A stretch of DNA of 31,076 nucleotides from Candidatus Caldarchaeales archaeon (GCA_032249095.1 JAVVGN010000017.1:1-31076), one strand, 5' to 3'; positions 28,070 through 28,143 are shown, numbered from the stretch's first letter. Numbers and translations are program-made. Notes: a model not told the origin generated them from the letters alone.

Positions 28070-28143
28070 TAGGCCCGGTGGGATTCGAGTCCGCGGCCTC
28101 CGGGTTAAAAGCCCGTCGCTCTTCCCGTCTGAGCTACGATGCC
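28070..28143 (-). tRNA. tRNA-Lys(TTT)-like gene with defective acceptor and T stems (pseudogene, hybrid, or non-canonical intron-containing or split tRNA)
   Basis: The D arm (GCTC-AGACGGGAA-GAGC) and the anticodon arm (CGGG-CTTTTAA-CCCG) fold well. The acceptor GGCATCG/CGGGCCT has two central mismatches, and the T stem GCGGA/CCCAC has two mismatches. The 3' half is 24/32 identical to the tRNA-Arg 3' half. Confidence 0.45.

Follow-up and report, generated by a model that had tools for sequence, protein, structure and literature searches.

A probable tRNA-Lys(UUU) pseudogene next to a degraded LAGLIDADG endonuclease element in a Candidatus Caldarchaeales archaeon

The tRNA-Lys(UUU)-like sequence

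The 31,076-nt stretch of Candidatus Caldarchaeales DNA analysed here (GCA_032249095.1 JAVVGN010000017.1:1-31076; henceforth the window) carries a tRNA-Lys(UUU)-like sequence on its minus strand, at 28143..28070, and a tRNA-Arg(TCG) gene on its plus strand. The former is very probably a pseudogene, flanked on its 3′ side by a degraded element of ~1.2 kb with the remains of a LAGLIDADG endonuclease gene, and a second degraded copy of the element lies behind the tRNA-Arg(TCG). In window coordinates, the two loci comprise the following features (ORF, open reading frame; IS, insertion sequence; MITE, miniature inverted-repeat transposable element):

28144..28234, minus strand: retained upstream promoter/leader of tRNA-Lys, with AGGCCCAACATTTAACCCAAAC at 28234-28213 and AGTAAAGACTCAAAAACCGC further down
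28070..28143, minus strand: probable tRNA-Lys(UUU) pseudogene (Rfam tRNA match, missed by ARAGORN, identical to intact relatives at 62 of 74 positions)
28008..28069, plus strand: tRNA-proximal end of the element, that is, the 3′ untranslated end of the endonuclease gene, starting after the discriminator with ATATTAGTAATT
27636..28007, plus strand: N-terminal portion, pseudogenised, of the LAGLIDADG endonuclease gene with its upstream region (tblastn and nucleotide matches)
27099..27635, no strand assigned: degenerate, ORF-free, low-GC filler (GC 0.475-0.49), with an IS- or MITE-like terminus at 27614-27636
26875..27098, no strand assigned: distal module of ~220 nt that ends the element (...GGACAAACAACACAATACGGATATCC), an 83% inverted match to 19790-20009
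8198..8272, plus strand: intact tRNA-Arg(TCG) (ARAGORN; Rfam 66.5 bits, no mismatches)
8273..8362, minus strand: tRNA-proximal end of the second, younger element copy (ATATTAGTTATT...), with a G-rich motif at 8304-8326
8363..8545, minus strand: C-terminal LAGLIDADG endonuclease remnant, residues 258-318 (tblastn, 70% over 61 amino acids, E=8e-22)

The minus strand of 28143..28070 matches the Rfam tRNA family, with anticodon UUU, at 39.9 bits (gathering score 29, E=2.9e-5), compared with 57-75 bits for intron-less and 44-50 bits for intron-containing tRNAs at related loci. ARAGORN, for which tRNA-Arg(TCG) at 8198-8272 is the sole tRNA call in the window, recognized no tRNA-Lys at this position, even with lowered thresholds or the intron option; at its lowest setting, only spurious tRNAs of other isotypes appeared. 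The original prediction, made from the sequence of the window, had described canonical D and anticodon arms and two mismatches in each of the acceptor and T stems, all of which is borne out. Both arms are intact, G18G19, U8 and A14 are kept, and the Rfam/cmscan alignment places the mismatches at C3.C70 and A4.G69 of the acceptor stem (GGCATCG/CGGGCCT, which also has two G.U pairs) and at C50.A64 and A53.C61 of the T stem (GCGGA/CCCAC). Here, point substitutions have turned G53 into A and T54 into C, and the G53-C61 pair is gone. The A27.G43 pair, likewise flagged by cmscan, also occurs in the intact tRNA-Lys of two relatives (L166 and L015) and is therefore typical of the lineage. The energy of the cloverleaf was calculated as -13.5 kcal/mol at 37 °C and +10.5 kcal/mol at 85 °C, versus -35.4 and -4.6 kcal/mol, respectively, for an intact homologue, and the minimum-free-energy fold of the sequence is not a cloverleaf.

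Over its whole length, the sequence is identical to the intact tRNA-Lys(UUU) of L166, L230, L231 and L015 at 62 of 74 positions, including the lineage-specific A27.G43, and to the tRNA-Arg at 49 of 75. The 12 substitutions relative to the intact L166 gene (10 transitions, 2 transversions) fall on 6 of the 42 stem positions and 6 of the 32 loop positions, and none of the six stem changes is compensated. They are spread over both parts of the molecule (5 of 42 positions in the 5′ part, 7 of 32 in the 3′ part; Fisher p=0.34). A sister strain (L127), 98.7% identical to the window over 4.1 kb, has a Lys-like tRNA that scores 45.2 bits and differs solely in the acceptor 5′ strand, GGCCTCG versus GGCATCG in the window, where pair 4-69 is broken; between the two strains, the tRNA changes at about the same rate as the adjacent non-coding DNA. 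In several metagenomes, contigs that encode the exact neighbouring protein carry the identical Lys-like sequence.

The 3′ half had been proposed to be borrowed from the tRNA-Arg locus, on the strength of 24 matches out of 32. The likeness is there, with 23 of 32 positions found to match; the borrowing is not supported, given that the same half agrees with intact tRNA-Lys at 25 of 32 positions (L166, computed) or 27 of 32 (L064, counted by hand) and that it is not significantly more substituted than the 5′ part. A scan of reference genomes with a pattern of the D and anticodon arms listed more than 100 archaeal tRNA-Lys(UUU) genes, the window's own species being absent from the matches listed, and almost all have a GGGCCCG/CGGGCCC acceptor stem and a T arm of the form GCGGG-TTCRAAT-CCCGC or similar. 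The acceptor 3′ strand of intact tRNA-Lys is thus likewise CGGGCCC, and the aberrant strand is therefore the 5′ one (GGGCCCG to GGCATCG) rather than a foreign 3′ strand. Acceptor stems of the GGGCCCG/CGGGCCC kind are generic in these thermophile tRNAs, and the likeness of Lys and Arg inside the tRNAs is only the generic resemblance of G+C-rich thermophile tRNAs.

In four related genomes (L015, L166, L230 and L231), the intact tRNA-Lys(UUU) adjoins the genes for HisRS, DUF92 and ATP synthase subunit B (AtpB). The L015 and L166 genes agree at 74 of 74 positions, the L230 sequence equals that of L166, and the tRNA-Lys of L230 and L231, also located at HisRS-DUF92-AtpB, scores identically in cmscan (68.2 bits). 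The gene context of the window copy differs from this native locus, with no shared genes; it lies after the gene for a membrane protein with an LPG_synthase_TM (lysyl-phosphatidylglycerol-synthase-type transmembrane) domain. Its upstream region is collinear with that of L166 over 55 nt at 69% identity (E=3e-5), plus a block with 16 of 20 positions matching, and the collinear homology amounts to ~150 nt in all, including a TATA-like block. The element itself is present behind the tRNA-Lys of L166, L230 and L231 and absent in L015, a Ca. Calditenuaceae metagenome-assembled genome (MAG). Synteny between the L015 and L230 loci holds upstream only and, because the downstream flanks are non-syntenic, the empty site in L015 is not defined on both sides. 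Tetranucleotide similarity of the L230 and L166 contigs to the window is 0.92-0.94, a value that does not discriminate the same organism. The closest named relatives of the window PyrB (72%), the linked AtpB and the endonuclease are MAGs assigned to 'Nitrososphaerota', 'Thaumarchaeota', 'Aigarchaeota' and 'Ca. Caldarchaeales'; judged by these proteins, the organism is Aigarchaeota-like (Nitrososphaerota), with no sign of Thermoproteales, the group that the original prediction had named as having non-canonical intron-containing or split tRNAs.

Copies of a LAGLIDADG element behind tRNA genes

The homology that had been seen to run from the tRNA into its downstream flank is confirmed by several observations. 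In a self-BLAST of the window, 8220-8326 pairs with 28122-28009 (69.8% over 116 nt, E=3.7e-5), and under relaxed scoring the match extends beyond the tRNA ends by ~106 nt (65.9% over 185 nt, E=7.9e-15). The sequence AATATTAGTWATT occurs twice in the window, each time directly after one of the two tRNAs, and TGGGGGAGGGGT has three exact occurrences, at 8315(+), 18813(+) and 28009(-); with one mismatch allowed, five sites are present versus 0.38 expected, and no shuffle reached five. The homology of the Arg and Lys flanks is real and beyond chance, and the two flanks resemble each other because both tRNAs precede worn copies of one putative homing-endonuclease element.

The element end on the Lys side has its G-rich motif, in minus-strand reading, at 28009-28029, followed by what remains of the endonuclease gene. 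With the 320-residue protein of a related contig (L153) as the tblastn query, 27801..28007 corresponds to residues 29-104 at 54% identity, with three in-frame stops; after residue 104 the sequence jumps to the 3′ untranslated end, and the catalytic core (~residues 105-320) is therefore deleted. At the nucleotide level, this copy is 84-89% identical to those of L185, L148, L216 and L191 over 27625/27636-27973. The filler at 27099..27635 has no ORF longer than 69 amino acids and shows short matches to other element copies, and the whole 1.2 kb on the 3′ side of the Lys-like tRNA (26800-28070) has a low G+C content and no long ORF. The distal module that ends the element in the window is also the end of the element, 1,210 bp long, that follows the intact tRNA-Lys in L230; beyond this module, the sequences of the window, L004, L127 and L220 diverge.

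The Arg-side copy is 82-90% identical to copies of the same subfamily behind other tRNAs (90.1% over 354 nt to that of L153) and 73-75% identical to the subfamily of the L185 type. Its homology to other copies ends at 8545, and it is therefore truncated upstream. An empty site at this tRNA-Arg was not found among the related contigs, eight of eight of which carry the same truncated copy. The Lys and Arg copies are only ~66-70% alike because they belong to different subfamilies, the GACGTAGCTTTCTAGCCGT type and the GATGTAYTCTTCTA type.

When metagenomes were scanned with the G-rich motif alone, 93 stretches were returned, in ~30 of which the motif stands in the context ATATTAGTTATTATTTTGAG...GGGGAAATGGTTGGGGGAGGGGTAGGTTTTCTAGTGG and begins exactly after the discriminator of an intact tRNA. 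The element end was found directly behind tRNA-Arg(TCG, CCG, TCT), Lys(TTT), Asn(GTT), Thr(GGT), Pro(TGG) and Ser(CGA, GGA), that is, behind at least nine tRNA species including an intron-containing tRNA-Ser(CGA), with a constant junction at N73|ATATTAGTTATT. Copies behind different tRNAs are homologous over 1.0-1.3 kb and up to 90% identical over 1 kb, as illustrated by L135 (Pro) and L149 (Arg-TCT) at ~90%. Their interior holds an ORF of ~300-320 amino acids that is read towards the tRNA. In the intact 320-residue ORF of L153, two stretches match the Pfam family LAGLIDADG_3 (PF14528; E=1.5e-14), with the motifs LAYVIGAKVGDGY and AFLRGFADSEGS (GDG and SEG), including their catalytic acidic residues; the archaeal endonuclease 2dch is the only sequence match in the PDB, and a weak one (E=9e-6). 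At E<=1e-5 there are 756 homologues of the protein, almost all of them from hot-spring metagenomes and annotated as 'intein-encoded DNA endonuclease-like protein'. A convergent tRNA, 0-116 nt from the stop codon, is likewise present at homologues selected solely for protein similarity (L231:1657-2568, L232 and L233). In a literature search, we found no account of free-standing LAGLIDADG genes of archaea that adjoin tRNA genes, and the family appears to be largely undescribed.

Two arrangements among these copies are of separate interest. At L187:about 2940, L194:4329, L198:8483, L211:about 212 and L162:99, the tRNA-side end of the element meets a short tRNA-3′-like remnant or no recognisable tRNA, which suggests that the element can carry tRNA end fragments or leave them behind. 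In L185, an endonuclease element follows each of two convergent tRNAs, at 852-943 on the plus strand and 4028-4113 on the minus strand (one or both being tRNA-Ser), so that the two elements lie head to head, which is the geometry of the window's Arg and Lys loci in miniature.

The flank homology had originally been read as the att site of a tRNA-targeting integrative element. What survives of this proposal is the association of a mobile element with the tRNA. An integrase-type att site is not supported: no integrase domain was found in Pfam scans of ~30 window ORFs and in precomputed Pfam hits on related contigs, neither self-BLAST nor a repeat finder revealed a directly repeated copy of the 3′ segment of either tRNA in the window, and across nine tRNA species the element homology begins at the base after discriminator N73, not inside the tRNA. 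A BLAST search of 26800-28160 against phage and plasmid collections returned no match, and scans of viral contigs with two flank motifs returned one chance match each, in unrelated DNA. Inspection of the element sequences by eye for terminal inverted repeats yielded a weak TTAGT match only, which we do not claim as such. Among the known RNA families of Rfam, searched with a permissive threshold in the flanks and repeats, there was no hit beyond a sub-threshold match of the C/D-box kind. This match, to sR1, lies at 8727-8781 on the minus strand (25.3 bits, gathering score 45, E=0.012), in an ORF-poor stretch behind the truncated element.

Several further features of the window touch on the element or lie near its copies. 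One of them resembles the element in its ends:

18789..20009, plus strand: related unit of unknown nature, with the G-rich motif at one end (18803-18827) and the 220-nt module at the other (19790-20009)

The spacing of this unit is similar to that of the Lys-side element; neither endonuclease homology nor a tRNA is present in it, the two ORFs that it contains (111 and 184 amino acids) match no Pfam family, and a homologous stretch is present in L153:621-1279 and 2503-2946. The unit may be unconnected with the pseudogene. An IS occupies 12940-13650, with a DDE_Tnp_1 transposase ORF at 12952-13440(-), and the start of the window (1-55) is a 55-nt, 95% inverted match to 12940-12994. The 22-mer TAAATAGTTTTGAGACGAGTTC at 27614-27636, within the filler of the Lys-side element, recurs at 13628-13649 beside the transposase gene, and its position at 27614-27636 is the exact point at which homology to other endonuclease elements ends. 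Adjoining the IS, at 12191-12628 (-), is a short Lyase_1 fragment (145 amino acids), probably a gene remnant, in the place of which related contigs have other remnants. Past the distal module, 26875-27328 of the window, L004:3036-4421 and L127:12310-13232 continue into different DNA, namely a methyltransferase gene in the window, a helicase-like gene in L004, and a class-II aminoacyl-tRNA-synthetase core fragment with many further gene fragments after it in L127; this region is a rearrangement hotspot. Downstream of the pseudogene in the sister strain, L127:12642-17718 holds short ORFs with fragments of NADH dehydrogenase, luciferase-like and aminoacyl-tRNA-synthetase domains, and looks like a stretch of pseudogenes.

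The pseudogene interpretation and its alternatives

We consider the Lys-like gene to be most likely dead, in keeping with one half of the original suggestion of a hybrid or dead tRNA. On this interpretation, it is a full-length copy of tRNA-Lys under neutral drift. Directly after its discriminator comes a degraded element that had as its cargo a LAGLIDADG homing endonuclease gene with two motifs, oriented towards the tRNA, and another copy, of the other subfamily, has degraded independently at the same position behind the tRNA-Arg(TCG) at 8198-8272. The element would spread when the endonuclease cuts near a tRNA 3′ end and repair copies the element into the break. The copy in the window would then be a redundant paralogue consisting of promoter, tRNA and element, either moved or left behind by an element-associated rearrangement, which would have decayed because an intact tRNA-Lys(UUU) is presumably encoded elsewhere in the genome. 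The activity of the putative homing endonuclease, its target site and its mobility are predictions throughout.

Five points weigh against this interpretation. First, the second intact tRNA-Lys(UUU) of the same genome is presumed from the intact copies seen in related genomes. Second, the Rfam score of the Lys-like sequence is still above the gathering threshold. Third, the promoter-like upstream block is conserved, so that the locus may still be transcribed. Fourth, some element copies have no recognisable adjoining tRNA (L162, L187/L194, L198 and L211). Finally, no clean pair of empty and occupied sites with both flanks syntenic was found among the related loci.

The alternative that survives best, though we regard it as unlikely, is a mosaic formed by co-conversion during homing, in which the T loop and the 3′ strands of the T stem and acceptor stem were copied from a donor (e.g. 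an Asn-like tRNA), thereby creating C50.A64. In its favour, TCGAATCCCACCGGGCC of the pseudogene is identical to the element-bearing tRNA-Asn(GTT) of L220 and differs from intact tRNA-Lys at exactly two positions, and element copies with only short tRNA-3′-like remnants exist. However, the two diagnostic sites are the only ones and both are transitions, many candidate donor tRNAs were implicitly compared, and the same T arm is found in some genuine tRNA-Lys(UUU) genes (L092) and may thus be ancestral. Moreover, the excess of substitutions in the 3′ part over the 5′ part is not significant (p=0.34, as above).

It is less probable still that the sequence is a functional, non-canonical tRNA (with an intron, split, or tolerant of mismatches), perhaps the only tRNA-Lys(UUU) of the cell. 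The Rfam score above the gathering threshold speaks for such a gene, as do the D and anticodon arms and the promoter-like block upstream, all of them intact, and thermophilic archaea, Caldiarchaeum among them, often have disrupted tRNA genes (PMC3218864, PMC3293823, PMC3082918). An intron-containing or split tRNA had been the alternative offered in the original prediction. Every segment of 3-160 nt was removed singly from a 331-nt region, and the ~46,000 products were submitted to ARAGORN; no single excision restores both the acceptor and the T stem. The 24 products that pass are marginal and were rejected, as all of them either keep both T-stem mismatches or give an A/T-rich T arm implausible for a thermophile. 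The best upstream candidate for the acceptor strand, AGGCCCA (28234-28228), was likewise set aside, for it reads AAGCCCA in the sister strain and is thus not conserved. A scan for the bulge-helix-bulge (BHB) motif produced 88 matches versus 46 ± 9 in shuffled sequences, the scanner being too permissive to be used alone; none of the matches coincides with a stem-restoring excision, nor do strict BHB patterns match any rescue. Neither scan bears out an intron-containing or split tRNA; a partner half may exist elsewhere in the genome but is not needed. In addition, point substitutions have removed the G53 and T54 of the intact gene, the cloverleaf is not stable at temperatures like those of growth, and the newest mutation breaks a pair (4-69).

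Least probable of all, if by a small step, is the hybrid of the original prediction, in which tRNA-Lys would have acquired an Arg-type 3′ half and flank through an element of the integrase type or through inversion involving the two convergent tRNAs, 20 kb apart: its acceptor 3′ strand CGGGCCT does share six of seven positions with that of tRNA-Arg, the discriminator is A in both, the flanks are homologous, and inversions between tRNA genes driven by an integrase have been described in Thermococcales (PMC5495485), but the CGGGCCC acceptor strand also occurs in intact tRNA-Lys, the 3′ half is nearer to Lys than to Arg (25-27 versus 23 of 32), the perfectly intact tRNA-Arg implies that there was no reciprocal exchange, neither an integrase domain nor a direct att repeat was found, and the flanks stem from different element subfamilies that are ~66-70% alike.

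Related systems and implications

The tRNA-Lys(UUU) pseudogene resembles the tRNA pseudogenes flagged by tRNAscan-SE in its full-length homology, its broken stems and invariant positions, and its lack of compensatory change; it differs in its association, on the 3′ side, with a mobile element and in its position outside the conserved tRNA-Lys locus. With the split, permuted and multi-intron tRNAs of archaea (Chan et al. 2011, PMC3218864) it has in common that standard finders miss it and that its host is a thermophilic archaeon, whereas its defects are point substitutions, and neither an insert flanked by a BHB motif nor a partner half accounts for them.

The endonuclease of the element shares two acidic-residue motifs, a monomeric size and thermophilic hosts with the LAGLIDADG enzymes of archaeal rRNA introns (I-DmoI, I-PorI, I-Tsp061I / PDB 2dch and I-Vdi141I). 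In contrast to these, its gene is free-standing rather than within an intron or intein and is convergent with tRNA 3′ ends, it is found at many tRNA species instead of one conserved rDNA site, and the protein has ~110 extra N-terminal residues. Homing endonucleases are normally bound to one long, specific site. Those of phage tRNA clusters, such as T4 SegB, are also free-standing, lie beside tRNA genes and spread by cleavage and repair with co-conversion; however, they are of the GIY-YIG rather than the LAGLIDADG type, reside in phages rather than archaeal chromosomes, and occupy one locus rather than many tRNA species at a fixed junction. Integrative elements of the SSV and pNOB8 types similarly lie 3′ of tRNA genes and leave decayed remnants, but the element in the window is without a tyrosine integrase (whole or split) and without an attL/attR repeat, and its boundary falls after the tRNA.

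A further parallel is provided by Caldiarchaeum subterraneum, in which a 1.87-kb insertion, composed of a conserved block and an 813-bp ORF, is repeated at tRNA-Thr loci (Sugahara et al. 2012, PMC3293823). The corresponding a+b unit is present in 6-7 copies of 1-2 kb, each with an ORF of ~270 amino acids, and is tied to a scattered tRNA fragment; these authors proposed a mobile element that scatters tRNA fragments, described the ORF only as 'DNA-binding/recombination', and linked the unit to pNOB8-type plasmids through dinucleotide content (PMC3293823). The words 'LAGLIDADG' and 'homing' do not occur in the text of that paper (PMC3293823). The aigarchaeal host and the repeat of a non-coding block plus ORF adjoining tRNA genes are common to both cases, whereas the C. 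subterraneum insertion lies within the tRNA gene and the element in the window starts after N73. Likened by description, the two may belong to the same family.

The pseudogene itself is ordinary and carries little weight beyond a warning to annotators, given that Rfam calls it a tRNA. Of wider consequence is one endonuclease family that has the same position behind at least nine tRNA species, counts hundreds of relatives in hot-spring metagenomes, and leaves behind tRNA fragments and a dead tRNA. This raises the possibility, which we put forward tentatively and at less than even odds, of an undescribed class of selfish archaeal genes, of which the pseudogene would be a by-product, namely free-standing LAGLIDADG genes that target tRNA 3′ ends in general and, in doing so, hop between, duplicate, fragment and scatter tRNA genes. 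If the enzyme recognizes the conserved DNA of the T arm and acceptor stem, a single selfish gene would gain dozens of safe landing sites per genome, and the system would offer an experimental handle on the duplication, fragmentation and splitting of archaeal tRNA genes. Targeting of tRNA ends would thereby supply a concrete mechanism for the disruption of tRNA genes in Aigarchaeota and other thermophilic archaea.

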